Shown here: positions 6,611-36,164 of the stretch, in pieces
Position numbering within the stretch: the stretch's first letter is position 1
Layout: each line of letters opens with the position of its first letter
IMG/VR virus record: IMGVR_UViG_2516143027_000009
DNA from: a virus
Taxonomy: Duplodnaviria > Heunggongvirae > Uroviricota > Caudoviricetes
DNA: 43,233 bases
Reading direction: 5' to 3' (one strand)
Notes under the pieces: generated by a model
Told to the model about the DNA's origin: nothing
Seen by the model: only the letters and a program-made list of their open reading frames with translations
Databases searched by the model: none
Program-made: the position numbers and the translations under genes

Positions 6611-6625
6611 TTACCTTTCAGGTAA
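6611..6625. promoter_or_regulatory. Operator-like palindrome TTACC-TTTCA-GGTAA (copy 1)
   Basis: Same 5-5-5 palindrome as in the OR/OL regions; lies between the tailspike start and the 6702 gene. Confidence 0.5.
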
Positions 6626-6662
6626 TTTGCAAAACGTGCTGGATAGCAAACAAATTATTTGA

Positions 6663-6682
6663 TACTGTATAAATATACAGTT
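6663..6682. promoter_or_regulatory. LexA (SOS) box TACTGTATAAATATACAGTT
   Basis: Perfect CTGT-N8-ACAG with AT-rich spacer, about 20 bp upstream of the RBS and ATG of the 6702 gene. Confidence 0.7.
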
Positions 6683-6701
6683 ATTGCATGGAGAAGATAA
6701 G

Positions 6702-6959
6702 ATGCAGCAGTATCACTATCCACTGGAAGACGGATTTACCGAAAGGATTCACACGCCGGGAGGCGTCAGGTCACTGGTGGAGGGATCGCACTTGATGAAA
6801 TTACTCCGGGATCTCGATAAGGATGGATTTAATGTCGATGGCCCACTTGCCGAACTGACTGCACTGATTAACTACGTCACCAGCTCACAGATGTCTATGC
6901 AGGATCTGCAAACACATCTCGACTATTGTGCCGAACAATTACGAAAACAAACCCGGTAA
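6702..6959 (+). CDS. Small antirepressor-like protein: standalone copy of the module shared by three antirepressor fusions
   Basis: RBS GGAGAAG then ATG 6702; 85 aa; roughly 40% identity by eye to the C-terminal ~80 aa of the 8108, 9930 and 41299 gene products (shared PL..G...IH.P.GV..L.E.S.LM.LL..L..DG..V.G..AELT....Y......QTH..Y). Confidence 0.6.
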   Translation: MQQYHYPLEDGFTERIHTPGGVRSLVEGSHLMKLLRDLDKDGFNVDGPLAELTALINYVTSSQMSMQDLQTHLDYCAEQLRKQTR

Positions 6960-6981
6960 ATTTAAAGGCCGCAAGAGCGGC

Positions 6982-7710
6982 CTATCGTTTCGCTTTGTGC
7001 TCGTCCCAGCACGTTTTGCACCATGCCATTAAGCCGTCCGCATTTTGATTATTAGGGTAAAAGCTGGTCCGTTTTCTGCGGACATTACAAATTGGGCACC
7101 ACTTCATATGGCGTGTATTCTTTGGGCCATCGAGACACCTTGCACACCACTTAGTCAATCCATCTGGATTTTTTGACGATTTCCGGAATTTGTCATATGG
7201 AAGGTTTATTCTGCATCGCAAACACTGCTTGCGGCCACTTGAAACTCTGTTAGCTGATTCTTCTTTTGGCGGCGATACAGAAGGTATTCTTGCTGGCTCT
7301 GATACTGCCTGAGGTGCTTTTTTAGATGACTGAGACGATATGTCATCACCAGGGAATCTTCCATGATATGCCGGACGCGTTGACACTCCAGGTGGAAGCT
7401 CAGCTGTAAACGGCTTTGGCTGAATCAGTTGCCTCTCTTTTGCTAACTCCTGCTGTTTATAATATGTCTGGATTACCGCACTATCATAAGCAGGAGGTAC
7501 GGAAATATCAGGCGCGTTACCTCCAGTTTTTTGAAAATGAGTAGATGTGTGTTCTATCACCTGTGTACGACTAATCGTTACCTCCCCATCTTCGGTCTTT
7601 ATCGTTTTGTTCTGATTAACGACCGTACGATCAGAGATCTTAGTCTTGTTCTGGTTGATAACGTAAATAATCACCGCAACCACACCAACAACTATCCAGA
7701 AAACTTCCAT
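6982..7710 (-). CDS. Membrane-anchored protein with Pro-rich linker and tandem CxxC zinc-ribbon repeats
   Basis: N-terminal TM helix; two repeats C-x2-C...DGL..WC-x2-C; operator copy in its promoter region. Confidence 0.5.
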   Translation of the reverse strand: MEVFWIVVGVVAVIIYVINQNKTKISDRTVVNQNKTIKTEDGEVTISRTQVIEHTSTHFQKTGGNAPDISVPPAYDSAVIQTYYKQQELAKERQLIQPKPFTAELPPGVSTRPAYHGRFPGDDISSQSSKKAPQAVSEPARIPSVSPPKEESANRVSSGRKQCLRCRINLPYDKFRKSSKNPDGLTKWCARCLDGPKNTRHMKWCPICNVRRKRTSFYPNNQNADGLMAWCKTCWDEHKAKR

Positions 7711-7730
7711 TGCTTTTCCTCACAATAACA

Positions 7731-7745
7731 TTACCTTAAAGGTAA
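7731..7745. promoter_or_regulatory. Operator-like palindrome TTACC-TTAAA-GGTAA (copy 2)
   Basis: Sequence match to the operator consensus; divergent region between the 6982..7710 and 8108 genes. Confidence 0.5.
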
Positions 7746-7823
7746 TATCTTGCTTTCAGGTGATCAAGCGTTAAACGCAATCAACCAAATACGGTTGATT
7801 TTAATATTTCTTCGCGTTTATCA

Positions 7824-7838
7824 TTACCTTTGCGGTAA
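7824..7838. promoter_or_regulatory. Operator-like palindrome TTACC-TTTGC-GGTAA (copy 3)
   Basis: Sequence match to the operator consensus; upstream of the long leader of the 8108 gene. Confidence 0.5.
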
Positions 7839-7929
7839 ATTTACATCGCACTCCTCTTGTGCCATAGTAATCGGGCACTGGCAAAATCCAGTGCCGGGAT
7901 TGGCGTCCCGGGTTACTAAGTGGCGCATA

Positions 7930-7951
7930 CCACGCCAGACGTGGTTTTTTT
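7930..7951 (+). terminator. Intrinsic terminator inside the 5' leader of the BRO-domain antirepressor gene
   Basis: Hairpin CCACG-CCAGA-CGTGG followed by T7; about 150 nt upstream of the 8108 start codon. Confidence 0.45.
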
Positions 7952-8107
7952 ATGCGTTAAGCACAGCTATATCCGAATTATGGTGGGCTGGGCAGGGGTC
8001 CGAAAGGACGCCGGTACCACTTAGGCCGGTACGCCAACCTTGTCCAGTTCACCACCAGTAATTGGCGTTGCGGTGGTGATTAAAATCACTAAGTGGAGAT
8101 AACCACC

Positions 8108-8818
8108 ATGGCTAATGCTCAAACTTCCATCTTCAAATTTGAATCTGTTAACCCTATCCGTTCCATCATTATCGATGGCCAACCATGGTTTGTAGCCCAA
8201 GACGTTTGTAGTGCGCTGCGTATCCAAAACGTCACCCAAGCACTTGAAAAACTGGATGATGATGAAAGGTCTATGTTCAACATAGGGCATGAACATCGTG
8301 CAATTTTTGACAGCCGAGTAAAAGAGATCAACATCATCTCCGAGTCAGGCCTCTACACACTGATCCTCCGCTGCCGCGACGCAGTGACACCAGGCACTAT
8401 CCCCTACCGCTTTCGTAAATGGGTTACAGGTGAGGTTCTTCCTCAGATCCGCCGCACCGGAAGTTACATTAAAAACTCGCTCCCGCAGGAAGAACGCATA
8501 AAGATGGTTGCCGACCAGGTAGCCAACGCCACGGCGTCAGCAGTAATGCAGGCGATGAAGATAGAGAACAAAACCTACAGTGCCCCACTGAAGCCCGGCT
8601 ACCGTAGCCTGATTCATTCGCCGTCTGGTGTTCTCGGCCTGACGGAGAACTCACTGCTGATGAATCTGCTGAACCAGTTACAGGAAGACGGGCACGACGT
8701 ATCGGGCGCGGCGGCGGAACTGACCACCATGTTCTGCTACATCGTCGGTGTGAGCAAATGCCTGCGTGATATCCAGACCCACGCGGAGTACATCAACGAC
8801 AAGGCAGGGTTCTTCTGA
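8108..8818 (+). CDS. Antirepressor-like protein, N-terminal BRO-N domain fused to the shared C-terminal module
   Basis: N-terminal region typical of the BRO-N family (IFKFE...IDGQPWFVAQDVCSAL); RBS AAGTGGAG before ATG 8108; C-terminal 80 aa near-identical to the 9930 and 41299 products. Confidence 0.7.
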   Translation: MANAQTSIFKFESVNPIRSIIIDGQPWFVAQDVCSALRIQNVTQALEKLDDDERSMFNIGHEHRAIFDSRVKEINIISESGLYTLILRCRDAVTPGTIPYRFRKWVTGEVLPQIRRTGSYIKNSLPQEERIKMVADQVANATASAVMQAMKIENKTYSAPLKPGYRSLIHSPSGVLGLTENSLLMNLLNQLQEDGHDVSGAAAELTTMFCYIVGVSKCLRDIQTHAEYINDKAGFF

Positions 8819-8840
8819 CGGCGGCGGCACAGGGACGTGC
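8576..8840 (+). repeat. Copy A of a ~260-bp near-identical repeat (3' end of BRO gene plus about 20 bp after the stop)
   Basis: Near-identical to 41706..41970 (direct) and 9906..10160 (inverted); estimated over 95% identity by eye. Confidence 0.8.
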
Positions 8841-8889
8841 CTTTAAATAATTCTGTACAGATTGCAGACTGGGAGTGAATAGCGTACTA

Positions 8890-8904
8890 TTACCTCAAGG
8901 GTAA
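8890..8904. promoter_or_regulatory. Operator-like palindrome TTACC-TCAAG-GGTAA (copy 4)
   Basis: Sequence match; about 60 bp upstream of the 8964 gene. Confidence 0.5.
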
Positions 8905-8963
8905 GAAAGCATTTTTAATCTTCCCTTCAAAACGCGTCCTGTAGCCAAACATGGGAGGACGAA

Positions 8964-9596
8964 ATGAGAACAAATACAACAAGAAAAGCGATGCCATACA
9001 TTATCCCAGAAGCAGATTTCGATAGAAAACTGAACATGTCTGAGAAGAACACTAGTCACACCGAAAGCTACTTAGCGAAAGGTGTGGTTGATTTCGTTCT
9101 TCCGGGATTCACAACACCTTATGGTTATCGCCTTGTAAAATCTTGTAATGGCGATCATTACAGAATGATTACTACCAGCGATACTCCAGAAACGGTGTAT
9201 GCGGTTAAGTTAATCTTTCGGGAAGATATCGTCGAAGCCAAAAGAACATGTACGCAGATCATGGTATGGCGTACGCCTAATGTTATTCATGACCGTGCTG
9301 TTCATGGTTTGCCTCAGATTTTTTTTCAGTTCTTCCTAGAGCAATATGCGATCGTTGTATCTGATGAGCAACAAACAATCGATGGGAGAAGATTCTGGGA
9401 AAGAATGATTTCTTGGGCTATAAACACCCCGGGATATAATGTATACGTTTCAGATGGCTCTGAAGAAGATAGACCTCTTAGCTTCATGACATCATGGGAT
9501 GATTTCTATAGCCAGTGGGCTGATTTCTGTTGGGGCAGTGATAAAGATGTGCATACCCACAGACTACTGGTTATAAGCAAAGATAAACTGCATTAA
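8964..9596 (+). CDS. Hypothetical protein (accessory gene, no recognisable motif)
   Basis: Strong RBS GGGAGGA before ATG; 210 aa; lower GC than neighbours; own terminator; lies between the inverted repeat copies A and B. Confidence 0.6.
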   Translation: MRTNTTRKAMPYIIPEADFDRKLNMSEKNTSHTESYLAKGVVDFVLPGFTTPYGYRLVKSCNGDHYRMITTSDTPETVYAVKLIFREDIVEAKRTCTQIMVWRTPNVIHDRAVHGLPQIFFQFFLEQYAIVVSDEQQTIDGRRFWERMISWAINTPGYNVYVSDGSEEDRPLSFMTSWDDFYSQWADFCWGSDKDVHTHRLLVISKDKLH

Positions 9597-9600
9597 TAGA

Positions 9601-9622: not shown

Positions 9623-9694
9623 GTGGACGAAACAAAAGTCAGTGCTACACTCATTGACGCCACATTGAGGTGGCTTATAGATGGAAATTTCACA

Positions 9695-9905: not shown

Positions 9906-10160
9906 GCACGTCCCTGTGCCGCCGTTCTGTCAGAAGAACCCTGCCTTGTCGTTGATGTATTCCGCGTGCGTCTGGATATCACGCAGGCATTTGCTCACAC
10001 CAACGATGTAGCAGAACATGGTGGTCAGCTCCGCCGCCGCGCCCGATACATCGTGCCCGTCTTCCTGTAACTGGTTCAGCAGATTCATCAGCAGTGAGTT
10101 CTCCGTCAGGCCGAGAACACCCGACGGCGAATGAATCAGACTGCGGTAGCCTGGCTTCAA
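9906..10160 (-). repeat. Copy B (inverted) of the ~260-bp repeat
   Basis: Reverse complement matches copies A and C, including the post-stop segment. Confidence 0.8.
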
Positions 10161-10868
10161 TGGATAACCATAACATTTTGTCTGTGTTTTAATTGCCTCA
10201 CGAAGCGCATCTAACATCTTGACTGCCACTTCATCATTCTCTGATGCAGATCCAGCAGGGAGATACTCCCCTTCAAGCGGAACCCGAGCAACAAGAGACA
10301 ACGCTTCGGCAAATTGATCTTCACCAATTTCTTTGTACGAACAGCCAAAATGAGATTTCAGTGACGACCACATGGTGATCATCGCCTTAGCCTGTTTTTC
10401 TTTTGGCAGAGACTGACCGCGACTCATGACGAGTTGTTTAATGGCTTCCTGCTGTTCAGTTGTTATTTTACCCGGCAACGCCTTTTTAGCTTTGCGTGGG
10501 TTAACCACATGGCCTTTAGTCCAGTACTCGTAGAGCACATCGTCACACTCTTCCTGATACTGGATTACCTTGTCGCGGATTTCAGGGCGGACTTTGTTAG
10601 GGCTGATGCTGTTCAACCAAGCTGCCAATTTTCGTAAAGCCATACAAATCATGGCTTGCACCCCACCGGCAGAAGGTATGGTGATTTCCACCATACCCTT
10701 CGAGAAGCGTTGAGAAATCTTCTTATGTTGAGATTTCCAGTCTAGCCCCATTCCCTCAACGATAGGTTTCATTGGGGTATACGGTTCGCCGTTGTGATTG
10801 ACAACATAAAGCTCTGCGCCGTGGAATGGCACGTTGATAGTAGATACTGCTGTTGCTATACTCGTCAT
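9930..10868 (-). CDS. ant: Antirepressor Ant-like protein (P22 Ant N-terminal-like domain plus shared C-terminal module)
   Basis: N-terminal FHGAELYVVNHNGEPYTPMKPIVEGMGLDWKSQ resembles the P22 antirepressor N-domain (from memory); located downstream of an Arc-like gene with a divergent Mnt-like gene, as in P22 immI. Confidence 0.65.
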   Translation of the reverse strand: MTSIATAVSTINVPFHGAELYVVNHNGEPYTPMKPIVEGMGLDWKSQHKKISQRFSKGMVEITIPSAGGVQAMICMALRKLAAWLNSISPNKVRPEIRDKVIQYQEECDDVLYEYWTKGHVVNPRKAKKALPGKITTEQQEAIKQLVMSRGQSLPKEKQAKAMITMWSSLKSHFGCSYKEIGEDQFAEALSLVARVPLEGEYLPAGSASENDEVAVKMLDALREAIKTQTKCYGYPLKPGYRSLIHSPSGVLGLTENSLLMNLLNQLQEDGHDVSGAAAELTTMFCYIVGVSKCLRDIQTHAEYINDKAGFF

Positions 10869-10942
10869 GTCGTTAATTCCTATACGTAGTTTTACGATAC
10901 TGAAGCCCTGACGGTCTGGCCACCGTGGGGCTTCGCTGTTTT
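10869..10942 (+). ncRNA. Candidate sar-like antisense RNA (antisense to the ant RBS and arc 3' end)
   Basis: Plus-strand promoter TTGATA-17 bp-TATACT at 10834..10862 inside the ant 5' end; hairpin 10902..10934 followed by a T-rich tract gives a predicted transcript of about 70 nt. Confidence 0.4.
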
Positions 10943-11108
10943 ATGCCACGCTATTCTTCTCACCAGTGAGTCCATACACTTTCCTCAGCTGATAGATAAT
11001 CTCTGTATTGAACTTTCGGCATTCTTTTTCGCCATTTCTTTCAATAGCTAACTTCACATCGTCCGGAAAACGAACTCGTCGTTGACACATCTCTTTTGCT
11101 TTTTGCAT
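10941..11108 (-). CDS. arc: Arc-like ribbon-helix-helix repressor
   Basis: 55 aa from ATG 11108 with RBS AAGGAG; motif RVRFPDDVKLAIERNGEKECRKFNTEIIYQL matches the Arc/Mnt RHH pattern. Confidence 0.65.
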   Translation of the reverse strand: MQKAKEMCQRRVRFPDDVKLAIERNGEKECRKFNTEIIYQLRKVYGLTGEKNSVA

Positions 11109-11228
11109 TTCATATCTCCTTAGCCCCACCGTGGGGCAAAATAATTGTCACACCGTGCGTCATTGATGTCAAGCACACGGTGAGGCATACTTCAATCATT
11201 GCAAGTAACTCAATATTTGGTGAAGAAC

Positions 11229-11660
11229 ATGAGCAGAGAAGATCCACAACTAAGGATCAGACTTCCCGTCGAAGTAAAAGAAAAAATAGAAATTTCTGCA
11301 AAAGCCAATAAGCGATCAATGAACGCTGAAATAGTACAACGTCTTGACACCAGCTTTCTGAAAGATATTCATGAAGATGACGTAATTTCTGCTTATGAAG
11401 CAAAAATCATTGCAAACAATGCACGACATGAAATATCAAATATTATTTTCAAAAGAACCTTTAATGAAATTAATAAGAAAATAACACTTGGACATACAAG
11501 TTTTTATATAAACCTTAATGACCTTGAACTGGAATCACTTGCAGATAATGATTACCAGATCATCTTTGAAAAAACATTTAATAGGCTCAATGAACTAGGT
11601 TACATCATCTGTGAAAACTCATGGGATGCAGATGGTTTTGGAATTGAAATACCTGAATAG
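11229..11660 (+). CDS. mnt: Mnt-like ribbon-helix-helix repressor with a C-terminal extension
   Basis: N-terminus MSREDPQLRIRLPVEVKEKIEISAKANKRSMNAEIVQRL closely parallels P22 Mnt; divergent from arc-ant; AT-rich. Confidence 0.65.
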   Translation: MSREDPQLRIRLPVEVKEKIEISAKANKRSMNAEIVQRLDTSFLKDIHEDDVISAYEAKIIANNARHEISNIIFKRTFNEINKKITLGHTSFYINLNDLELESLADNDYQIIFEKTFNRLNELGYIICENSWDADGFGIEIPE

Positions 11661-12325: not shown

Positions 12326-13438
12326 TCACCGCATCACCGGATCCACTTGGTTTATTAGTGGCGCAATCCAGAACAGGTTATTGCCGGGTATCAGGGTTCG
12401 GACATTATGCACAATACGATCACCGGCATCACCATTCAACACTCCTGAGGTCACATCAATGATGCTATCCGCAAGACCAAATGACGGTCCGAATAGAGAT
12501 CCTACGAATCCACGACTGGCATACCTGGACTGTGTGCCAGTGCCAAATAAAGCCCCCAGCCCAACAGCACCACCAGTCGCCTTTTCAGCCATGTTGTTAT
12601 ATTCCATCAATGGCCCAAGAATACCGGATCTATCTATACCCTCAAGCACCAGCTTCTCTGGTGACCAGTCAACATTTTTCCCTTTCGATGCTTCTTTAAG
12701 CGCATAGACCAGTGAGCCAAGAGCAATCTGAAATGCAGTGCCATAATAAAATTGCGCAGTTCCTTCCTGTAACCCACCAAGTAGCGCACGGTTGTATGAA
12801 GCCGTTGTGAATGATTTAAACTGAAATATCGTTCGCCCCATTGGAGTACTCGCCCATAAAGGTGTGTCACCAATACCGGGGGTGATGATAGTGTTATTAA
12901 CGTCTTTCAGAACCGCTGACTGGAATACTCCGGCAACGTACTGATCGTCCCATTTATCAAAGTTACCAATGTGCCATCCATCAATTACCTCACCATGTTT
13001 CTCGAACTCACTGCGAATACGCGCAGCCATATTGTCGTTGATACCGAGTTTTGCCATGCGACGTGCAGAAAACGCACCAGACAAAATACCGTCTGACGTG
13101 AGCATTCCGTTCATGGATTTGTTTATGTCATTAAATCGATCCATGAGTGTCAGCTTGCCGAAGGCATCAGTAATTCGCTCCATTCCTGCTTCGACTGCTG
13201 TTGTCCTGGAAGAACTGTCAACAAGATCACCAATTGCACGAGAACGTGAATGTAGTACAGTTTCCAATCCAATCCCCATCTTCAACATCTCTTCTTTGCT
13301 GGCCTTAAATGCCGGTGATTGGGATATCTGAGAAGCATAGCCTTTCATGGAGTTACGGAAACCATTAACCATAACCCCTCTGGCCAGATCTGGAATAGCT
13401 GATACTGTCATTCCACCGAGTTTGGTCGTGAAGTTCAC
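12326..13438 (-). CDS. Internal virion or ejection protein
   Basis: 370 aa, Gly/Ser-rich, last gene of the internal-protein cluster; position by analogy with T7-like gene order. Confidence 0.55.
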   Translation of the reverse strand: MNFTTKLGGMTVSAIPDLARGVMVNGFRNSMKGYASQISQSPAFKASKEEMLKMGIGLETVLHSRSRAIGDLVDSSSRTTAVEAGMERITDAFGKLTLMDRFNDINKSMNGMLTSDGILSGAFSARRMAKLGINDNMAARIRSEFEKHGEVIDGWHIGNFDKWDDQYVAGVFQSAVLKDVNNTIITPGIGDTPLWASTPMGRTIFQFKSFTTASYNRALLGGLQEGTAQFYYGTAFQIALGSLVYALKEASKGKNVDWSPEKLVLEGIDRSGILGPLMEYNNMAEKATGGAVGLGALFGTGTQSRYASRGFVGSLFGPSFGLADSIIDVTSGVLNGDAGDRIVHNVRTLIPGNNLFWIAPLINQVDPVMR

Positions 13439-15339
13439 ATCCCGCAGAAAAGCGCCAGCACGAACAAAAACGAAGACGGGTCATCAGGCATACCATATGT
13501 ACCAACAAGACGATCGCGTAATGCTGTTATGTCTCTGAGATCATTTGCTCTTGATTTTGAAAGTCTGGACTGTTCTTTCCGTAATTCCTTTTCGTACTTT
13601 CGCATTAATGAATCGAGTTTACCCTGAGGAACAACTTCACCATTGCTCTCATAACGTGCTTTCAGATTTGCCACACTTTCGTCATATTTCGCCTTTATTT
13701 TTTCAGGCACTTCCCGTAACAGACTGTCATATTCGTCCTCAATTAATTGCAGACGCTCTGTCATAGTTCGTTTGCCAAATGTTCTCGTCAACTCAATTTC
13801 TGCTGCCGCTTCACGGATATGACGTTGTAGAACGTAATTCACATCACTTTCGAGATAATCCCTGATAAGACTATCAGGCACATTTAATGTTCTTTCTTTC
13901 GTACTACCTGCGGCTTTTACAGAAAATACGCTGACAAAATCCTGTGGAACCTTAGCACCAGTAATTTTATTAATTACGATATCCGCTGCAATTTCAGCAT
14001 CCTCAGGATCCAGTGTTTTATTGCCTCTCGACCACCAGTCAACCAAAATACGTCGAAATTTATCGCGTTCACTGATTATTTTTCCAACTTTATATATACG
14101 TGGGAAATAGCTTGCCTGGCCTAATGCTTTCAGTTCTTCATCTGGCGGCAATAAACCAAGCTTTTGCATTTCAACCTTCACCCGATTTAATACAGTTCGC
14201 ATCGCCTGCGCCGTTTCCTGAACAACAGGATTAGCATGCACATCACCGCTTCGCATAGCATTCCCAACCTGCTGACGAAATGAATCAAAACTCATGTCAC
14301 CACCATCAGCTTTATACTTTGCGTATGCCTGTTTATTTCCGACAACAACAGCAGCTTCTTCACGCTGCCATCCACGTGTACGGGTTTCTACAGCTACCGG
14401 TGTTTCAATCCCCCTTTCATTTCCTTTAAGGGTGAAATTATTTTCGGCTAACTCCAGCGTTGTTTTTCGCACTGTCTTGGACGGAGACTCCATTAACCTT
14501 GTCAAAGGAGTAAGATAGCTCCCTGCTTTCCATGCAGCCTTTCCAACCACCCCACCGGAAACAGGGGTTAAATCATCCAGAGTCGCTGTATCAATTTTCA
14601 TAGCACCAACACTACCACCATCAGAAAGCGAAGCGGCAGCCCTGTCAGTCGCTGATGTAATGCTCATATTATCAAGAGCATCAGCAACCTCACGCGTGGC
14701 TGCAGCCCGGACGGATGGCGAAAGCGCAACACCAGCACTGGCAAACACGCCGCTCATCATCGCACCCGCTGCAATGTGAGCGGCACTTTCACCCCATGAG
14801 CGTGTTATTTGCTGATTATTCAGCACAACCTCGCTTAATGCTGTACCGGCTGCACCAATCGCAATCTGTGAGCCAATACGCGCCAGTGCCCCTCCTTGAG
14901 CACCGGGGATAAACATTGACGCAACAGTAACCGGATCCATTCCCGCAGCAATACTGGCAAGGGTTCCAACTACGCCAGCATCAGACAATAAACGTCTGTC
15001 TTCATTTTCATCATCTATCTGCTGCTTAATCCACGCCGTTTCCTCTGGCGATCGGGAATCTGCAAATTTCGCCCCCCAGTATTCATAACCGTGCAACTCA
15101 TTTTTATCAGCATATGGGTTATAACCTTCGACCGGTTCAAACTGTCTGGCTGGTCGGAAAAAACCAGCCAGAATATTGTTCTGTCGCATTGCAGCCCCCC
15201 ATACGGAAGGCTCCGGTGGCAATGGCTCAGGATTAGCCCCTTCCGGAAGGGCAACATCAAACCCAGTTTGTTCCGGCAAAACATTACCTGACGGGATCAG
15301 TCCGTTATTAAGATCTTCAGCTTGTGCATAAACTGGCAT
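13435..15339 (-). CDS. Internal virion or ejection protein
   Basis: 634 aa, contiguous with the neighbouring internal virion protein genes on the minus strand. Confidence 0.55.
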   Translation of the reverse strand: MPVYAQAEDLNNGLIPSGNVLPEQTGFDVALPEGANPEPLPPEPSVWGAAMRQNNILAGFFRPARQFEPVEGYNPYADKNELHGYEYWGAKFADSRSPEETAWIKQQIDDENEDRRLLSDAGVVGTLASIAAGMDPVTVASMFIPGAQGGALARIGSQIAIGAAGTALSEVVLNNQQITRSWGESAAHIAAGAMMSGVFASAGVALSPSVRAAATREVADALDNMSITSATDRAAASLSDGGSVGAMKIDTATLDDLTPVSGGVVGKAAWKAGSYLTPLTRLMESPSKTVRKTTLELAENNFTLKGNERGIETPVAVETRTRGWQREEAAVVVGNKQAYAKYKADGGDMSFDSFRQQVGNAMRSGDVHANPVVQETAQAMRTVLNRVKVEMQKLGLLPPDEELKALGQASYFPRIYKVGKIISERDKFRRILVDWWSRGNKTLDPEDAEIAADIVINKITGAKVPQDFVSVFSVKAAGSTKERTLNVPDSLIRDYLESDVNYVLQRHIREAAAEIELTRTFGKRTMTERLQLIEDEYDSLLREVPEKIKAKYDESVANLKARYESNGEVVPQGKLDSLMRKYEKELRKEQSRLSKSRANDLRDITALRDRLVGTYGMPDDPSSFLFVLALFCGM

Positions 15340-19095: not shown

Positions 19096-21566
19096 CAGAA
19101 TCCCCCAACAGTAAGGCGAGGAATAACGGCAAGAACAGACAGCGGCAACGGATCAAGCTGACGGATTTTTACACGTCCGTTTTTGCCCCAGTTACTGTCC
19201 AGTTTCACTTCTACTTTTCCGGTAGCATCATCAACAGGATCATCGTAGAACTCGAATTCACGCTGTGGATATTCGTACCATTTACCGCCGGGCGTAGTCG
19301 CCCAGATGCCGCGACTGGCATTCACAACCAGAGTAACGGACGGGATCACCTGTTTTTTGTCCAGCAGCGTTTCCTGTCCGTTAATGTTGATATCCAGTGT
19401 TTCGAATTCAGCAGTTATTGGCAGGCCGATGTGCACAACAGCCCCAGGTGATTCCAGCGTGACGGCACCTCCGGAAACCACTTTCTGTGGTTCCACGTTC
19501 GCATCAGAGAGGATGTTTACGGTCTGGCCTTCAAGATGAGACAAGCCGCCAAATGTCCGGCGCGCCATCTGCCAGTTCGTGGTGGCCACATTCCTGAGGG
19601 ATGGCGGGACGTTCCTGTTAGCACGAACCACTACAGCGGTATTGCTGGTTACAGAAATAATGTCGCAACGTAATTCTTTTGACACCTCATCGCCAGTATC
19701 AGGATCAGTTCCGGTATAAGGGAACTGTAGTTGCGCGCCGACATCACTACTGGTGAAGTACGCACCACCAGAAACACTGATTGTATATTCCGCGCGGTAA
19801 TCCCATTCGCCAGAACCACCAGTGATGGTCATCGTTCTGTCAGACGTATTTCTTCCATCATAGCTAAGGCCAGAATCAACAAAGAAAGCATCTTCATCGC
19901 TGGTAAATAAACGGCTGGACAGTCGCTCGATGTATCTCACTGTTTGCCCGTTAACGGTTCGGTTAATGACGAAATACACCGCATCTTCATTGCCTTCGCT
20001 GATACTGCATGTGCTTTCATATTTTCCGGTACTGGACTGTGGTGCCCATGCAAAAACCTGTTGATCACGCAGATAGGTCATCACCAGTAATTTACCGTCA
20101 TCACGAATGCAGAAGGCGCTGGAGTAAGGGACAATAGAGAAGCACCAGTCAACAATGCTGTGCTTCTGAAAAAGATGATTGGCAAGGATAGTAAGGTCGT
20201 TCCCCTGATAGCCGTCAACATCGAATGAATAGGCCAGATCACGGACAACACTGCCTTTCTCCTGGACGAACAGAGCAATATTCGCCACGGCAATTGGTGG
20301 GACGTTGCTTGAGCCATTTGATCCCTGAGAGCTGAATGCAAATGATGATGGGGTTAACACTTTGTTCTGGTCGCCGGTGATGACGTACTCACCTCCGGAA
20401 GTCAGCGCCACCAGCGAACCAACATCAATCAGGTGGCGGATCTCATTAACCTGACGCCCGGCATAGGTGTAGATAATTCTATCGTCATCCTGCGTAGGAT
20501 TGCTTTTGCCAAAATCCTTATAATCCCCAGTACGGCTGGCCCAGATAGTCTGAGGGAACGCAGTCGATGCGGCGAAGTAAAGACGCTGTTGATAATAAAC
20601 AACAGTGCCAGGATAACCATTAACACTGTTCCAGGCATATTTAGCCCATTTATAGCTGGCATTATCCTCGCCAACGACCTGCGAAGGGATATAGGAAATC
20701 ACCTCAGCAGTTGCAGTAGTGCCATTTACAGCAGTTATACGGGCAATGCCAAAACCACTGTGCAGATACTCCCACTCAATGCCAGTATCATCATCACCGG
20801 AGCCTCCCCAGCCATCCCATGATGTGCCTTCTGTATGCGAAGGGCGCAAAGTGCCTGTTTTGCCTGCTGTAACGGCGCGATAGTAGTTACTGTCTGCACG
20901 GCGAATATCGCCAATCGACGTACTCTTACTGGTTTCCCATACCGGTACTGAATCCACTGCTGGCTGTTCCAGATAGAACAATTTGCCTACCTGCTCCGCG
21001 CCAAAAATAGAGGCGCTTGCCGTTAACGTAATTGTCCCGGTGCTGGCGCTGGCATAAACCGTCACTGACTCGTCAATATTGATATCTTCAAATGGCCCGT
21101 TCTTCGTTACCACATCAACCAGTTGCCAGTTGTCATGCGCATAGCGGCGCAACTCTTTCGGCGGGTATGCCGGATGAACCAGCGTAAGCACGTCTGCGCT
21201 TTGCGTGAATTTAATTCTGAACAGATCGGCTTCAGTATATGGCGTGGCAATTTCATAAATAACATTGCTGCTGTTCAGCACCAACGCACCATCTTTGATA
21301 ACGCGCATGTACTGGTGTCCGAACTCCAGAGCATAAGTCTGAACCGTCGAGAACTGGAACGGGATCAGGCGGCATTTCCGATTTGGGTATTTGGCGGCAC
21401 CGACAAAACGCGTACCAGGTCGACTCTCAACGCCGCCATACTGCCGCACGATAAAGTTATCGCACTTGCGCAATGCCACCTGGTACTTCGCCATGTCGAT
21501 ACGACCGTACAACGACGGTCCAATCTCACCACCGGCAAAGCTGGGCTGGATCCAACTGATAGCCAT
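19095..21566 (-). CDS. Tail tubular protein B (nozzle, T7 gp12-like)
   Basis: 823 aa; size and position match T7-like gp12 downstream of the gp11-like gene. Confidence 0.65.
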   Translation of the reverse strand: MAISWIQPSFAGGEIGPSLYGRIDMAKYQVALRKCDNFIVRQYGGVESRPGTRFVGAAKYPNRKCRLIPFQFSTVQTYALEFGHQYMRVIKDGALVLNSSNVIYEIATPYTEADLFRIKFTQSADVLTLVHPAYPPKELRRYAHDNWQLVDVVTKNGPFEDINIDESVTVYASASTGTITLTASASIFGAEQVGKLFYLEQPAVDSVPVWETSKSTSIGDIRRADSNYYRAVTAGKTGTLRPSHTEGTSWDGWGGSGDDDTGIEWEYLHSGFGIARITAVNGTTATAEVISYIPSQVVGEDNASYKWAKYAWNSVNGYPGTVVYYQQRLYFAASTAFPQTIWASRTGDYKDFGKSNPTQDDDRIIYTYAGRQVNEIRHLIDVGSLVALTSGGEYVITGDQNKVLTPSSFAFSSQGSNGSSNVPPIAVANIALFVQEKGSVVRDLAYSFDVDGYQGNDLTILANHLFQKHSIVDWCFSIVPYSSAFCIRDDGKLLVMTYLRDQQVFAWAPQSSTGKYESTCSISEGNEDAVYFVINRTVNGQTVRYIERLSSRLFTSDEDAFFVDSGLSYDGRNTSDRTMTITGGSGEWDYRAEYTISVSGGAYFTSSDVGAQLQFPYTGTDPDTGDEVSKELRCDIISVTSNTAVVVRANRNVPPSLRNVATTNWQMARRTFGGLSHLEGQTVNILSDANVEPQKVVSGGAVTLESPGAVVHIGLPITAEFETLDININGQETLLDKKQVIPSVTLVVNASRGIWATTPGGKWYEYPQREFEFYDDPVDDATGKVEVKLDSNWGKNGRVKIRQLDPLPLSVLAVIPRLTVGGF

Positions 21567-26955: not shown

Positions 26956-27045
26956 ATCAATGACTCCGTACGCAATTAAATCATTACCAATTTAACCACA
27001 TATGATTTATTTATCGTAGATGATTGACATTTAACGCACGAATTA

Positions 27046-27060
27046 TTACCTTTCAGGTAA
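27046..27060. promoter_or_regulatory. Operator-like palindrome TTACC-TTTCA-GGTAA (copy 5), next to a TTGACA hexamer
   Basis: Identical to copy 1; TTGACA at 27023..27028; lies between the portal operon start and the structured region and tRNA. Confidence 0.5.
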
Positions 27061-27382: not shown

Positions 27383-27459
27383 GTGGCATTAGCTCAGTTG
27401 GACAGAGCAACCGCCTTCTAAGCGGTTGGTCGCAGGTTCGAATCCTGCATGCCACGCCA
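27383..27459 (+). tRNA. tRNA-Arg (anticodon UCU), phage-encoded
   Basis: Cloverleaf by eye: acceptor GTGGCAT/ATGCCAC, D-arm GCTC-AGTTGGAC-AGAGC, anticodon stem ACCGC/GCGGT with loop CTTCTAA, T-arm GCAGG-TTCGAAT-CCTGC, discriminator G and encoded CCA. Confidence 0.85.
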
Positions 27460-27503
27460 GAATCACGCCTAAGGACCGTGATGCCAGAAGTTCCAGGTGC
27501 TTG

Positions 27504-27546
27504 GCGGTGATGGTTTCCCTTGAAGGACTATCACCGCCCTTTTTAC
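27504..27546 (+). terminator. Rho-independent terminator downstream of the tRNA
   Basis: Long hairpin GGCGGTGAT...ATCACCGCC followed by CTTTTT. Confidence 0.5.
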
Positions 27547-27619
27547 AGCAGGACGCCATTGCGATGACTTCATGCTGTAAACCAGTACAGCCACGGAAGG
27601 CATAACTCATTGCTTCCAG

Positions 27620-27642
27620 TTCGCCCGGTTCGCCGGGCATTT
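27620..27642 (+). terminator. Hairpin plus T-tract immediately upstream of the 27657 gene RBS
   Basis: GCCCGG-TTCG-CCGGGC followed by T6, then the RBS AAGGTGAG. Confidence 0.45.
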
Positions 27643-27656: not shown

Positions 27657-28079
27657 ATGAAGACAATTGATATGTTGGCTAAGTATCTAAATGAATGGCC
27701 ATTAAAATATTCTCGTATCGTTCAGGCTGAAGACTGCATTTTTTATGGCGTTTTTGCTGGTAATGAAATGCATTACGAAGTAATTCAGAGTGAGGGACTG
27801 GCCGGGTTAACTCTTAGCGAAGACCATGGTACTAGCGTTACGTACCATGACTGGATTTCAGCGCAGAAAACTGAAATGGAAAAAGGCAATGTGTTTGATA
27901 TTTCTCGCGCTGTATACGCCAAAGAAAAAAGTGATGATGATTACATGCGCGAAAACTTATACAACATGAAGTTACAATGCCTGGCTGAAGTGCTTAGTAA
28001 AAGATCTTTACTTGATGTGGTTGGTGCTGAGCAGGACGCCAAGGCAATCAACGCCGCATTCGATAAAATAACCTTCTAA
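27657..28079 (+). CDS. Hypothetical acidic protein encoded opposite to the late operon (accessory gene)
   Basis: RBS AAGGTGAG; 140 aa; low GC; own terminator; plus strand while the flanking portal and terL are on the minus strand. Confidence 0.6.
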   Translation: MKTIDMLAKYLNEWPLKYSRIVQAEDCIFYGVFAGNEMHYEVIQSEGLAGLTLSEDHGTSVTYHDWISAQKTEMEKGNVFDISRAVYAKEKSDDDYMRENLYNMKLQCLAEVLSKRSLLDVVGAEQDAKAINAAFDKITF

Positions 28080-29598: not shown

Positions 29599-30191
29599 TG
29601 ATTGCCATCCTGACGTTCTTTCAGTCTCTTCCTGGCTGCCGCTATGCGATCAGCAATTGTCACATTCACATTAACATCCAGGCGTTCTTTGAATGCATTG
29701 ACATCGACGTGCTTACCAATCAGTTCGAGGTTCTTCACCTTGTCAGGCCATTTAATTTTTTTGAGGATTGTCTCTATCGAATCCTCGTCCATGTTCATGA
29801 TGGTCGATGACAGATCAAAGCCGCTAAGCGTAGTGCGCCAGATTTTCGGCCACTCGCGGATTGGCTTAAGGCTCCCATCGTCGTTGAGGATATCAATCAC
29901 GTCCATCTGGTCGATCTCCACCAGGCGCATGAGAACGTAATCAGCACTGACGCGCATTCGTTTGTTGCGCTCCTCCATCAACTCGGCAATCCGTTTCTGA
30001 ATGCGTTCATCGCGCATCATGACACTGGCTTTAACTGCCGCTGTATTTGGGGAGAATCCTGCATTAATCGCAGCCTGAGTCTGATTTTCAGGCGTTTTGA
30101 TGTATGACTGGCAATAAGCCTCCTGCATTGCTGTTAGTGGCTTAAATTGCGTTGATTTGCGTTTATAGGTTTTAGGTTCAGCAGGCATCAT
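29595..30191 (-). CDS. terS: Terminase small subunit
   Basis: Region AMQEAYCQSYIKTPENQTQAAINAGFSPNTAAVKAS resembles the small terminase DNA-binding domain; start moved to internal Met pair with GGTGG RBS (the ORF extends to 30269). Confidence 0.65.
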   Translation of the reverse strand: MMPAEPKTYKRKSTQFKPLTAMQEAYCQSYIKTPENQTQAAINAGFSPNTAAVKASVMMRDERIQKRIAELMEERNKRMRVSADYVLMRLVEIDQMDVIDILNDDGSLKPIREWPKIWRTTLSGFDLSSTIMNMDEDSIETILKKIKWPDKVKNLELIGKHVDVNAFKERLDVNVNVTIADRIAAARKRLKERQDGNQ

Positions 30192-30196
30192 AACCA

Positions 30197-30230
30197 CCAT
30201 GGTAATAGTTACCGTTGTGGTAATAGTACC
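30197..30230. repeat. Tandem GGTAATAGT(T)ACC repeats directly upstream of terS
   Basis: CCATGGTAATAGTTACC-GTTGT-GGTAATAGTACCATG; half-sites related to the operator but in the opposite arrangement. Confidence 0.5.
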
Positions 30231-32081: not shown

Positions 32082-32614
32082 TGGTTGCCTCCTTTGCGAA
32101 GCTGGGCAGCAAAGTCAACTAACCACTCAGTCATTTCAACCTTCCCTACCAGGTCTGAACCAGGGTGCATACAGCAATCACTCTGCGCCGCTTTGAAATC
32201 CTTATACTCATATTCTTGGGCCACCAGATTTTTTGCAGCTTCTATAGCAGCATCCACCCCCTGCGCCCGTACTTCAGCCAGGAATGCGTCGGTGGCTGGG
32301 GTGTCTGATTGCAGAGACTTTGCGCGATAGTCATTCCACCCTCTTGCATACATGGGATTAACTTGCACTCCATCTTTTACGCAATATGCCTGACCTCCAC
32401 GGTTGATAACCTTGATTTCGCCCATAGCGCCAGACTTCAGCCCCGCATTCTCCACAGCCAGCGCATTAGCACGCACCAGTTGCACTTCCAGTTGCGTTGC
32501 CAAATCGCTGAGCAGCTTTGCCACACTGCGCATATCAACGGCACCACATTCTGCTTTCAGTTCCGAAGCCATCTCATGCCCGTCGGCAACTAACCCTTTG
32601 ATATTACTTTCCAT
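32078..32614 (-). CDS. Hypothetical early protein
   Basis: 178 aa ORF overlapping neighbours on the minus strand. Confidence 0.45.
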   Translation of the reverse strand: MESNIKGLVADGHEMASELKAECGAVDMRSVAKLLSDLATQLEVQLVRANALAVENAGLKSGAMGEIKVINRGGQAYCVKDGVQVNPMYARGWNDYRAKSLQSDTPATDAFLAEVRAQGVDAAIEAAKNLVAQEYEYKDFKAAQSDCCMHPGSDLVGKVEMTEWLVDFAAQLRKGGNQ

Positions 32615-32675
32615 CTTTACCCTCGCTTATCCACATAACTTATTGATTACATTGATAACTAAAAAGATCGTCGAT

Positions 32676-33026: not shown

Positions 33027-33103
33027 TTACCTCTGAGGTAATTAAAAACCACATAAGACACGAAATCAATAGAGTTTAGAATATTTTGTTACCCAACAGG
33101 TAA
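33027..33103. promoter_or_regulatory. Two operator-like palindromes (TTACC-TCTGA-GGTAA and TTACC-CAACA-GGTAA; copies 6 and 7)
   Basis: Sites at 33027..33041 and 33089..33103 between the P-like gene stop and the 32676..33023 gene start. Confidence 0.5.
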
Positions 33104-33140: not shown

Positions 33141-33917
33141 TTACTTGATAAATCCTGCCGCCTTTCCCCGCCTGTATTCCTCCATCAGCCACTGCGCCGG
33201 TGTTATTCCCCCCAGGGTGGCGGCGTTAGGCATGCACCCGAAACTTCGCCCTGGCGGGTGGTAAACGTCTCTCCCTGTGTCCGGAGGCGTACTCATGGGT
33301 TCTGGCTTTGCCTGTATGCTGATCACCGGATCGGGTATCTGCTGTCCGGAAGCCACCTTTTTCGCCCAATCATCGAGCAGCCTGCGCGCGTGTTTCTCAA
33401 CCTCAATCTCGCTAAGCTGGCGCTGATACATTGCACGGCGGGTATCACATACGACCCAGTACATAACCGGATGCCGCCACGGGAATCTTTCGGGACCACC
33501 AGGATATAAACTTTTTTCCTTGCTGTACCGGTGAAACTCCGCCATCACATCGTCAATGGTGACGCCAAGAACCATCTTGCTGTCTTTACACCACTTGATG
33601 AATTGCCCTGGCGACGGCCAGAACGGAGACTCACTGGCGCGGGCGTGGCGCATACCAGCGTTAACCTGTTCCATTGTAGTGATCCCATTCTCCAGAAACG
33701 CAAGCATCCATTGCTTACGGAATTCATTAAGTTTGTTCTGCTCCCTTATGGTCGAAACGCTTGCAGGAAATGCAGCCTGTAACTGGACAAATAGTTCATT
33801 GAAAATTCTAGCGACCTGCTCCTTTTTGCCATTGCTGTCACGCCGCTCTTCATGCACAGCAACACCATACTCACGTAAGCGATCGTACTCATTGAGAAGT
33901 TCTGGAGTTGATTTCAT
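33141..33917 (-). CDS. Replication protein P-like (helicase loader)
   Basis: Segment FPASVSTIREQNKLNEFRKQWMLAFLENGITTMEQVNAGMRHAR...PSPGQFIKWC aligns by eye with lambda P. Confidence 0.75.
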   Translation of the reverse strand: MKSTPELLNEYDRLREYGVAVHEERRDSNGKKEQVARIFNELFVQLQAAFPASVSTIREQNKLNEFRKQWMLAFLENGITTMEQVNAGMRHARASESPFWPSPGQFIKWCKDSKMVLGVTIDDVMAEFHRYSKEKSLYPGGPERFPWRHPVMYWVVCDTRRAMYQRQLSEIEVEKHARRLLDDWAKKVASGQQIPDPVISIQAKPEPMSTPPDTGRDVYHPPGRSFGCMPNAATLGGITPAQWLMEEYRRGKAAGFIK

Positions 33918-34719: not shown

Positions 34720-34912
34720 AGGTTTCCCCTCTTGCACTCTTTAGTGCACAAGCAAATTCATTACGATGGCGGTTGGCGCTATTCATTGCACATTCAACAC
34801 ATGTTCCGTTCAGAACATACCTTTCAGAGAGATGGCCGTGACGGCACCGCTTTCCTGTGAAATAGCGATTTAACCCGGCTTTTGCGGCCTCCATTCTGGT
34901 TACTATCTTCAA
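34700..34912 (-). CDS. Small cysteine/histidine-containing protein in the cII position
   Basis: 70 aa; C-x15-C-x2-C with His residues; between the tR1-like terminator and the O-like gene. Confidence 0.45.
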   Translation of the reverse strand: MKIVTRMEAAKAGLNRYFTGKRCRHGHLSERYVLNGTCVECAMNSANRHRNEFACALKSARGETYGKQLD

Positions 34913-34990
34913 TTTTTCCGCCCCTTTTTGTTATTGATATTGGCTATTTTGCACAATTGGAAAATTTGATCAACCAGATTTGGTTTTTTA

Positions 34991-35005
34991 TTACCTTTGA
35001 GGTAC
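34991..35005. promoter_or_regulatory. Operator-like variant TTACC-TTTGA-GGTAC (copy 8)
   Basis: One mismatch in the right half-site; between the Cro-like gene and the next gene. Confidence 0.35.
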
Positions 35006-35011
35006 GAATAG

Positions 35012-35039
35012 ATATGAAAAGACCGCCGGGTGGCGGTCT
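35012..35039 (-). terminator. tR1-like terminator hairpin after the Cro-like gene
   Basis: Minus-strand hairpin AGACCGCC-ACCC-GGCGGTCT followed by TTTTC. Confidence 0.45.
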
Positions 35040-35060
35040 ACAGAGGGTTGTAGCTGGATA

Positions 35061-35291
35061 TCATGAGTAGAAGAAGTATGCCAGTTCTGCTTTTGAGCGC
35101 AGCCATTGTCTTGTTTTACAGGCTTTAAAAAGCCCATTCATCAATACCTTACCTGGCATTTTGCGCTTGCCTGTTAAGTGAGTCTGGATATAGTGACTCG
35201 TCGTTCCGGCTTCCTGTGCGAAGGCTTCACGCTCATCCGGAGTAAGTGCAAGCCAGTGCTTTTTGAAATCGAAATGTCCGTTATCGCTCAT
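35061..35291 (-). CDS. Cro-like HTH DNA-binding protein
   Basis: 76 aa; HTH-like segment EAFAQEAGTTSHYIQTHLTGKR; divergent from the repressor across a three-operator region; followed by a terminator and the O/P-like genes. Confidence 0.55.
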   Translation of the reverse strand: MSDNGHFDFKKHWLALTPDEREAFAQEAGTTSHYIQTHLTGKRKMPGKVLMNGLFKACKTRQWLRSKAELAYFFYS

Positions 35292-35327
35292 AGCTATTGC
35301 CTGATATTTATTTCAGATAATAAATAT

Positions 35328-35390
35328 TCACCCATAAGGTAACAAAAATCAAGGATGGTTACCTATGAGGTGCATTTACCTGTTGGGTAA
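35328..35390. promoter_or_regulatory. OR-like region with three operator palindromes between Cro-like and repressor genes
   Basis: TCACC-CATAA-GGTAA (35328..35342), TTACC-TATGA-GGTGC (35359..35373), TTACC-TGTTG-GGTAA (35376..35390). Confidence 0.65.
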
Positions 35391-35445
35391 TATTGCTTTA
35401 AATTGAATCATCTACTGATTCATATATGAGGCGATTTTCCAGAAA

Positions 35446-36030
35446 ATGAAAAGTATCCAGGACGTCCGCAGGCAAAATCTCAACGACTTGATCGACCGTG
35501 AATTCAATGGTGTTCAGACGCGGATGGCAGAAAAACTTGGAACTCAGGCAAATCTGGTAAACCGCTGGGCTCTTGGCAAGAAGGTTATCGGCGACCAGGT
35601 TGCGCGAAAAATTGAAGCTGCCGCCAATAAACCCCGTAACTGGCTTGATATCGATCGCTCGCTTTCTCAGGAAGGTTTTCAGCCTGTCGGCCCAAGCGAC
35701 ATTGGTCAGCTGGCGGCTCACAACCTGGAACGCTGGATGAGCGAAAGCCGCGACCTTTCAACACAGGGAAAACTTCACCGCGCATCCGGCGTCGCCCAGG
35801 TGACAATCAGCCGCCTGTTAAACAATGAGGTCAGCGTTTCCATTTCCACCCTGGAGAATGTTGCATCCGCATTCGGGCGTCACGGATATGAACTACTGAT
35901 TCACCCGCACGACCCTGCGACTATCAACTATGACCGCTCACGCTACGCATTGTTACCCGAAACCGAGAAAGCAAAGATCGAAAGTTACATTGAATTTGTC
36001 ATCAACCAGAACGAAAAAAGCAAACAATAA
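35446..36030 (+). CDS. Immunity repressor (CI-like), dual HTH, no S24 peptidase domain
   Basis: N-terminal HTH (TQANLVNRWALGKKVIGDQVARKIEAAANKPRNWL) and a second HTH-like segment (ASGVAQVTISRLLNNEVSVSISTLENVASAFG); no Ser/Lys autocleavage motifs; flanked by operator clusters. Confidence 0.65.
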   Translation: MKSIQDVRRQNLNDLIDREFNGVQTRMAEKLGTQANLVNRWALGKKVIGDQVARKIEAAANKPRNWLDIDRSLSQEGFQPVGPSDIGQLAAHNLERWMSESRDLSTQGKLHRASGVAQVTISRLLNNEVSVSISTLENVASAFGRHGYELLIHPHDPATINYDRSRYALLPETEKAKIESYIEFVINQNEKSKQ

Positions 36031-36050
36031 AACTATATTTTTCAGTAAGT

Positions 36051-36075
36051 AAGCCGCCTCATGGCGGCTTTTTTA
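36051..36075 (+). terminator. Rho-independent terminator after the repressor gene
   Basis: Hairpin AAGCCGCC-TCAT-GGCGGCTT followed by T7. Confidence 0.65.
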
Positions 36076-36087
36076 TTGCCATCAAGA

Positions 36088-36164
36088 TTACCTTATGGGT
36101 AATTTTTTTAACTCATATCTATTGACATCAAACCAAATACGCATAATCATTACCTCAACGGTAA
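36088..36164. promoter_or_regulatory. OL/PL-like region: two operator palindromes flanking a TTGACA promoter
   Basis: TTACC-TTATG-GGTAA (36088..36102); TTGACA at 36122..36127 with CATAAT about 15 bp downstream; TTACC-TCAAC-GGTAA (36150..36164). Confidence 0.6.

Follow-up and report, generated by a model that had tools for sequence, protein, structure and literature searches.

The window analyzed here, the 43,233-nt stretch of viral DNA held as IMG/VR record IMGVR_UViG_2516143027_000009, contains a prophage of an ε15/phiV10-like podovirus, genus Uetakevirus, in which a 15-bp palindrome, TTACC-N5-GGTAA (TTACCNNNNNGGTAA), recurs far beyond the immunity region. The scattered palindromes are real, and they are probably (at a rough probability of 0.8) operators of the prophage's own immunity repressor, Rep, which would directly repress many transcription units through them; we infer that Rep binds every site. 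The arrangement is no anomaly: it is conserved among ε15-like phages and has been annotated there before. The initial annotation of this DNA was partly right, having proposed a single repressor with many dispersed sites. Its view of the sites as an oddity for lambdoid or P22-like phages falls away, since the element is an ε15/phiV10-like podovirus whose relatives carry the same scattered sites at syntenic positions.

The identity of the element is clear. Long stretches are 96-98% identical in nucleotide sequence to Escherichia phages HEMP4, vB_EcoP_ZX5, TL-2011b and phiV10, the portal protein is 80% identical to that of ε15, and the gene order and virion genes are ε15-like. Judged on its sequence, the prophage belongs to the ε15/SPC32H Rep-Ant system by all features tested.

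Census and conservation of the palindrome

Eleven exact copies stand in the window (starting at 6611, 7731, 7824, 8890, 27046, 30209, 33027, 33089, 35376, 36088 and 36150), roughly 350 times as many as in dinucleotide shuffles, which hold 0.03 on average and 1 at most. The initial annotation had allowed that the motif might be only as frequent as in such a shuffled background, and this is not the case. With up to one mismatch, the count rises to 14 against 0.71 expected, the additions being 30191, 34991 and 35328. The genome-wide weight-matrix search that it had proposed was run with a matrix trained solely on the sites of five other genomes; 14 window positions (the eleven exact sites with 34991, 35328 and 35359) score 12.5-24.1 bits, clearly separated from the next best at 9.8 bits, and Markov simulations yield 0.23 sites at >=12 bits. 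Position 30191 is a weak fifteenth site of 6.1 bits. All 13 copies listed initially are present, 34991 and 35328 with one mismatch and 35359-35373 with two; the list had overlooked the exact site at 30209 and its weak neighbor at 30191, directly 5' of the small terminase gene (terS).

The sites are perfect or near-perfect dyads of 15-17 bp. Their consensus frequently extends to ATTACC-N5-GGTAAT, and the central base is A or T in every site of the training set. All 15 lie inside the 9.1% of the window that a curated gene list leaves uncovered by genes, and the chance of 14 out of 14 falling in non-coding DNA is about 3e-15.

Conservation was assessed in six other complete Uetakevirus genomes (ε15, SPC32H, TL-2011b, phiV10, Enterobacter phage Tyrion and Klebsiella phage BUCT711) and in 20 kb of a Serratia ficaria prophage. 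The relatives have 11-18 sites each at no more than one mismatch, against 0.3-0.7 expected; the palindrome keeps syntenic positions in all six complete genomes and, in part, in the Serratia prophage. It stays unchanged while the identity of Rep to the window protein drops to 43-54%. The site classes shared among these phages are:

a pair of sites 18 bp apart just 5' of terS
a single site ~90 nt before the gp3-like gene of the portal/capsid operon
a single site between the antirepressor gene ant and the tail-fiber gene
a single site before the lysis cassette, missing from the window and from TL-2011b
a near-perfect site ~45-55 nt before the integrase gene int
the left operator (OL), with two or three sites
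the right operator (OR), with three sites
one site past the terminator of the cro-like gene
a pair past the replication genes

When seven of these regions are aligned across six genomes, 92% of the ten half-site columns are invariant, compared with 33% of the five central columns and 53% of the flanks, a pattern indicating that selection acts on the half-sites and not on the spacer. Spacing is conserved as well. Of the seven complete Uetakevirus genomes, all keep 62 bp between the members of the pair after the replication genes and six do so at OL, where the Klebsiella phage has 63 bp; the DNA between sites so spaced diverges. The int-upstream site, TTACCYTAAAGGTAT, occurs in all six complete relatives (as its reverse-complement equivalent in the Klebsiella phage; at L004 135-149 in TL-2011b). 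In the prophage studied here it would fall past the right end of the window (43233), so that the prophage probably has one more site. The lysis-cassette site is present in ε15, SPC32H, phiV10 and Tyrion. Before the lysis cassette of the window (3080-3387), a CATATATGGTT box is kept without a Rep site, which TL-2011b lacks as well; the DNA upstream of the lysis genes differs owing to an O-antigen-modification cassette that is of another kind or missing.

The ε15 reference sequence NC_004775 already holds seven features labeled 'protein_bind, repressor, lysogeny' (12-27, 2931-2947, 19895-19911, 32479-32494, 32554-32570, 32616-32632 and 35906-35922). Each is a TTACC-N5-GGTAA site, and together they represent the terS, gp3, tail-fiber, OL and post-replication classes, with none annotated at OR. 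Being common to all ε15-like phages checked and annotated in ε15, the sites of the window are thus another example of a known arrangement. The ε15 genome paper by Kropinski and colleagues (2007) reportedly discusses them.

Rep, its partners and the map of probable operators

The genes and the control element on which the interpretation turns are:

35446..36030, plus strand: rep, immunity repressor of 194 aa, a full-length match to SPC32H Rep (PDB 5D50_A)
6702..6959, plus strand: ant, small antirepressor of 85 aa, matching SPC32H Ant (PDB 5D50_E, E 5.4e-47)
6665..6680, plus strand: LexA box, CTGT-N8-ACAG within TACTGTATAAATATACAGT, 22 nt before the start of ant
35061..35291, minus strand: cro-like gene, opening the rightward early operon, transcribed divergently from rep and matching PHROG 35 'transcriptional repressor' (E 5.6e-13)

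Rep residues 1-190 align to residues 2-197 of 5D50_A (E 3.5e-42, phmmer against PDB), and the protein is ~43% identical to the Rep of ε15 and SPC32H. SPC32H Rep consists of an N-terminal DNA-binding domain, a middle dimerization domain and a C-terminal domain for tetramerization and Ant binding (PMC9986798). Rep has been reported as a dimer and a tetramer, of which the tetramer binds DNA and is disassembled by Ant (PMC9638917; PMC9986798); its mode of repression "has not been extensively characterized" (PMC9986798). In the window protein, a Pfam HTH_3 match at residues 106-147 coincides with the middle domain, the one named as the dimerization domain in the SPC32H literature, so that annotation by domains marks the wrong part of Rep as the DNA reader; the N-terminal DNA-binding region gives only a weak, sub-threshold YdaS-like match, at residues 21-61. 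N36, L37, R40 and W41 in the N-terminal region are invariant across the family, which fits the unchanged half-site. The repressor of vB_EcoP_ZX5 is 99.5% identical to the window Rep, and its overexpression lowers the transcripts of holin and endolysin by over 99.9% (PMC9782041), a result that is consistent with repression of many units without singling it out. The LexA box before ant is perfect in the window, and its CTGTAT/ACAG core is invariant in six genomes. LexA reportedly controls ant in SPC32H (Kim and Ryu, 2013). The cro-like gene occupies the position of ε15 gp39.

In the immunity region, the initial annotation had placed three palindromes between the divergent cro-like and rep genes, at OR, and two around a TTGACA promoter, at OL and the leftward promoter (PL); all five are there:

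35328..35342: OR site nearest the cro-like gene, TCACCCATAAGGTAA, one mismatch, overlapping the predicted rightward promoter (PR)
35359..35373: middle OR site, TTACCTATGAGGTGC, two mismatches, 12.5 bits, 17 bp from 35376
35376..35390: OR site nearest rep, exact, overlapping the invariant GGTAATAT
36088..36102: upstream OL site, exact, its center at about -62 relative to PL
36122..36150, plus strand: predicted PL, TTGACA-17-AATCAT, reading into a 50-aa gene (36184-36336) and then the recombination genes
36150..36164: downstream OL site, exact, beginning on the last base of the PL -10 element and covering the predicted start site

PR may consist of TTGTTA-17-TATTAT or TTGATT-18-AATATT, both lying over 35328 on the minus strand, and GGTAATAT may be the -10 element of the rep promoter. 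The 17-bp pair at OR is also found in SPC32H, ε15 and the Klebsiella phage. In the predicted PL, TTGAC of the -35 element is invariant in six genomes and its final base agrees in five of the six. The OL pair keeps the 62-bp spacing, and its upstream member begins 17 nt after the stem of the rep terminator (36051-36070).

The palindrome also precedes many units besides OR and OL, as first noted, and one repressor with dispersed sites is the best reading of this distribution. Ten sites lie outside the immunity region proper:

34991..35005: site past the cro-like gene, reading GTACCTCAAAGGTAA on the minus strand, one mismatch, 14 nt past the terminator stem 35039-35020
33089..33103: exact, the first of two sites past the replication (lambda-P-like) gene, filling the spacer of a minus-strand promoter predicted as TTGATA-16-CAAAAT
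33027..33041: exact, the second of the two, 62 bp from 33089; its end is 3 nt short of the ATG that opens the DUF1064 gene (33023-32676)
30209..30223: terS site, exact, 19 nt past the terminator stem 30260-30243 and ~20 nt before the start of the small terminase gene (30188/30191, minus strand)
30191..30205: weak terS companion, TAACCACCATGGTAA, one mismatch, 6.1 bits, 18 bp from 30209 and overlapping the terS ribosome-binding site and start codon
27046..27060: exact site 91 nt before the start (26955, minus strand) of the gp3-like gene, the first of the portal/capsid operon
8890..8904: exact site 60 nt before gene 8964-9596 (PHROG 1349, unknown function)
7824..7838: accessory-region site, exact, beginning at the last -10 base of a predicted TTGATT-18-TATCAT promoter
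7731..7745: accessory-region site, exact, 21 nt before the start of gene 6982-7710 (minus strand) and 93 bp from 7824
6611..6625: site between ant and the tail-fiber gene (start 6506, minus strand), exact

A consensus scan was made around every site, and the promoters kept are those whose hexamers are conserved across genomes. About half of the sites (six to eight) overlap the core of a predicted promoter. A TTGATC-16-CAAAAT promoter, conserved as CCAAATCTGG-TTGATC-16-CAAAAT, has its predicted start ~59 nt downstream of site 34991. Site 33089 lies 12 nt past the T-run of a terminator; its partner at 33027, at about +42 from the predicted start, contains the GAGG ribosome-binding sequence of the DUF1064 gene. 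The terS site at 30209 has a counterpart in all five relatives aligned, and no credible promoter was found between terminator and ribosome-binding site of this region in six genomes.

At 27046, one half-site would serve as the -10 element of a plus-strand promoter, TTGACA-17-TACCTT, whose -35 element is invariant in six genomes. It points away from the head genes, toward a tRNA-Arg gene (27383-27459) and gene 27657-28079. This tRNA-Arg(TCT) lies on the plus strand between the terminase and head genes; an 83-aa open reading frame (ORF) over it on the opposite strand (27389-27640, minus strand), annotated in relatives as TL-2011b gp24 and phiV10 p04, is doubtful. Site 6611 stands midway between the LexA-controlled ant promoter and the predicted tail-fiber promoter of this divergent region, overlapping neither; it is upstream of both, by 39 nt for the LexA box and by ~70 nt for the tail-fiber promoter.

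The three accessory-region sites have counterparts in TL-2011b, that of 8890 at 33333. Weak promoters were read by eye at two of them: TTGATC-17-TACCTT at 7731, below the scan threshold and with a half-site as its -10 element, and TTGCAG-17-TACTAT at 8890, ending on the first base of the site. The promoter predicted at 7824 reads into isrK (7875-7951), a C4 RNA (7976-8059) and a Bro-N gene (8108-8818). Both isrK, an Hfq-binding sRNA, and the C4 antisense RNA are Rfam matches above the gathering score, directly 5' of the Bro-N gene. The initial annotation had sites 7731 and 7824 in front of a membrane zinc-ribbon gene and a BRO gene; the sites and the downstream Bro gene stand, with the correction that an isrK-C4 RNA leader lies ahead of the Bro-N gene. 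ORF 7750-8061 was considered as a gene in this context and rejected, as most of its length (7875-8059) falls under the isrK and C4 RNA models, which leaves it probably no gene. The layout of isrK, C4 and Bro resembles the P1 c4-ant or the Gifsy-1 isrK-anrP module.

This is one of three antirepressor modules in the prophage, the others being the SPC32H-type ant and a P22-type arc-ant-sar-mnt module. The latter, an immI-type module without a Rep site, spans 9930-11660:

9930-10868, minus strand: Ant with a P22_AR_N domain
10870-10937: sar antisense RNA
10941-11129, minus strand: arc-sized ORF
11199-11660: divergent Arc/Mnt-like gene

A second motif, CCAWATRTGG, usually followed by TT, stands before the lysis cassette, the tail-fiber gene, the head operon, the DUF1064 gene, the unit after the cro terminator and the isrK promoter:

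3141-3151, minus strand
6571-6581, minus strand, with an inverted partner at 6544-6554, plus strand
26994-27004, minus strand
33047-33057, minus strand
34974-34983, minus strand
7785-7794, plus strand

Its locations are shared by ε15, SPC32H, TL-2011b, phiV10 and Tyrion. At five loci the motif follows a Rep site by 29-41 nt, and for site 34991 the distance is 7 nt. The motif is probably a -35-region element of activator-dependent promoters.

Elsewhere in the window, two overlapping minus-strand ORFs (12326-13438 and 13435-15339) jointly span the length of the single 3015-bp TL-2011b gp38; the split could be a frameshift, a programmed shift or real. An sRNA-Xcc1 match above the Rfam threshold (41169-41258, plus strand) lies between the methyltransferase region and a DUF1382-like gene beside the integrase gene.

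Proposed modes of repression

In the favored mechanism, Rep would silence the prophage via ~14 operators at nearly every transcription unit and not via OL and OR alone. The units bearing operators would be PL, PR and the rep promoter, the restart after the cro terminator, the post-replication unit, the entry to the terminase genes, the divergent region before the head operon, the ant/tail-fiber divergent region and three accessory cassettes, including the isrK-C4-Bro antirepressor module. Where an operator covers a -35 element, spacer, -10 element or start site, as predicted at 36150, 35328, 35376, 33089, 27046 and 7824, Rep would block initiation, and probably it would do so at 7731 and 8890 too. 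Paired operators keep fixed spacings of 62 bp both at OL and past the replication genes, of 93 bp near the isrK promoter and of 17-18 bp at OR as well as terS, and one tetramer, with its two DNA-binding pairs, may grip both members of such a pair; the 62-bp pairs in particular suggest that one Rep tetramer holds two operators, although such bridging is something we infer. Upon SOS induction, LexA would release ant, Ant would strip Rep off the DNA and all units would be freed together.

Several observations weigh against this picture. Matches to the promoter consensus are no commoner than in shuffled sequence, and no convincing sigma-70 promoter overlaps 6611, 34991, 36088, 30209 or, with respect to the head operon, 27046; the sites that overlap none stand either between a terminator and a ribosome-binding site or 58-75 nt 5' of the closest predicted start. 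Spacings of 48 and 17-18 bp between sites are out of helical phase, so a single bridging geometry cannot account for every pair. Rep and palindrome do not covary, the half-site being identical in every relative down to 43% Rep identity (Serratia, Klebsiella, Salmonella); with a half-site invariant across the sampled Rep family, a covariation test has no power to tie the protein to the site. A swapped immunity region was sought by comparing portal and Rep records, and every enterobacterial portal relative among the matches listed also carries Rep.

The sites away from promoters invite the thought that some of them are elongation roadblocks, stoperator-like, at which Rep bound just past a terminator stops leaking RNA polymerase; read-through from the cro-like, replication or regulator genes or from rep would plausibly be kept out of the next unit in the lysogen. 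Four sites do lie 14-19 nt past terminator stems in the direction of transcription (36051-36070 before 36088, 35039-35020 before 35005, 33137-33116 before 33103 and 30260-30243 before 30223), and at terS the operator is flanked by terminator and ribosome-binding site with no credible promoter between them in the six genomes. Site 33027, downstream of the predicted start and on the ribosome-binding site of the next gene, would suit the same role, which is plausible for the four post-terminator sites, for 33027 and for 30191, likewise on a ribosome-binding site. However, at least two of the four post-terminator sites (33089 and 36088) belong to or pair with a promoter-overlapping arrangement, so the order of terminator and operator may only reflect compact packing of units. 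With PR and PL shut, moreover, little transcription would remain to be blocked, and the orientation test that defines stoperators is inapplicable to symmetric sites. Roadblocks at some sites seem, on balance, rather unlikely. Somewhat less probable again is a broader scheme of genome-wide silencing that would draw together the 62-bp pairs and two groups of operators away from promoter cores, those 14-19 nt past intrinsic terminators and those 29-41 nt 5' of CCAWATRTGG, which marks the head, tail-fiber, lysis and other lytic promoters; a looping tetramer would block read-through and also exclude an activator of middle and late promoters. If true, stoperator silencing would have an equivalent, based on symmetric sites, in a Gram-negative podovirus.

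A different protein might be the main user of the dispersed sites, with Rep confined to OL and OR: the cro-like protein, timing middle and late units early in lytic growth, or a host factor. Cro and repressor share operators in lambdoid switches, as is established, the cro-like gene is conserved beside OR, and the location of many dispersed sites 29-41 nt upstream of CCAWATRTGG implies a further regulator. Yet nothing found points to a binder besides Rep, the motif is retained wherever Rep homologues bearing the conserved N-terminal domain are found, and the ε15 authors ascribed the sites to the repressor. No E. coli regulator is known to recognize TTACC-N5-GGTAA, and CpxR-like or other host sites are not known to include a matching symmetric consensus. 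This reading is distinctly improbable. That the repeats are non-regulatory, through chance or as leftovers of module boundaries or recombination, could draw on their frequent position at borders of genome modules and beside accessory cassettes, but the excess over shuffled sequence, the strict dyad symmetry, the selection on half-sites, the fixed pair spacing, and the presence at OL and OR with conservation from Escherichia to Serratia and Klebsiella all speak against it; statistics and conservation exclude such an origin. Direct repression by Rep at dispersed operators is left as the favored explanation.

Known dispersed-operator systems and implications

The closest systems are those of ε15 and SPC32H, which share with the window full-length Rep and Ant homologues, identical half-sites, a LexA box before ant, the gene order and the terS, gp3, ant/tail-fiber, OL, OR and post-replication classes of sites. 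Unlike ε15, the window has the extra accessory sites 7731, 7824 and 8890, at the isrK-C4-Bro module and two unknown genes; unlike ε15 and SPC32H, it has two OL sites instead of three and, as in TL-2011b, lacks the lysis-cassette site. No report on how the dispersed sites act was found in the literature.

The initial annotation had compared the sites with mycobacteriophage stoperators. As in L5 and the Cluster A mycobacteriophages, one repressor site occurs in many copies in short non-coding gaps, some of them between co-oriented genes; in the window, four or five sites lie between co-oriented genes, just past terminators. The likeness fails on the defining features. Stoperators are asymmetric 13-bp sites bound by a monomer with two DNA-binding domains, and work in one orientation relative to transcription (PMC9283540), whereas the sites here are symmetric palindromes and the repressor is a homologue of the dimeric and tetrameric SPC32H Rep. 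Mycobacteriophages have more than 20 stoperators, as opposed to ~14 palindromic sites here, about half of them over predicted promoter cores; and in contrast to the stoperator repressor, a monomer with a helix-turn-helix (HTH) and a 'Stoperator' domain, Rep matches only SPC32H Rep in PDB. By the symmetry of its sites and the type of its repressor, the system is not a stoperator system.

The dispersed C1 operators of P1 offer a closer analogy and are, in function only, the nearest analogue among enterobacterial phages. P1 has 22 dispersed, asymmetric 17-bp operators, ATTGCTCTAATAAATTT (PMC8546580), one of them before the c4-antirepressor operon. In both phages one immunity repressor would act over many operons and is inactivated by a protein partner, not by cleavage, and a C4-family RNA and a Bro-N gene lie behind Rep sites here: the 14 sites fall at about 10 loci, with 7731 and 7824 preceding isrK, the C4 RNA and the Bro-N gene. 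Unlike those of P1, however, the sites are dyad-symmetric and often form fixed-distance pairs, P1 is a plasmid-prophage myovirus, and the proteins have no detected relationship: PDB and Pfam searches with Rep returned only HTH families and 5D50, with no C1-related match.

Resemblance to lambda CI is limited to the divergent rep/cro promoters with three operators and the leftward promoter with operators of its own; lambda is not known to have operators beyond OL and OR. CI is inactivated by RecA-stimulated self-cleavage. By contrast, repressors of the Rep family are inactivated by an antirepressor (PMC9638917).

The findings establish no new principle, as the ε15 sites were annotated years ago and both P1 and the mycobacteriophages already demonstrate control by dispersed operators. 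Where phiV10- and TL-2011b-like prophages of pathogenic E. coli carry these palindromes, they can be labeled Rep operators, and the accessory genes of this prophage (the isrK-C4-Bro module, gene 8964 and gene 6982-7710) are predicted to be silent in the lysogen and released jointly on SOS induction. The conserved map of ~14 sites, with its strict 62-bp pairs and its operators past terminators, provides a testable geometry for repression by the unusual Rep tetramer.

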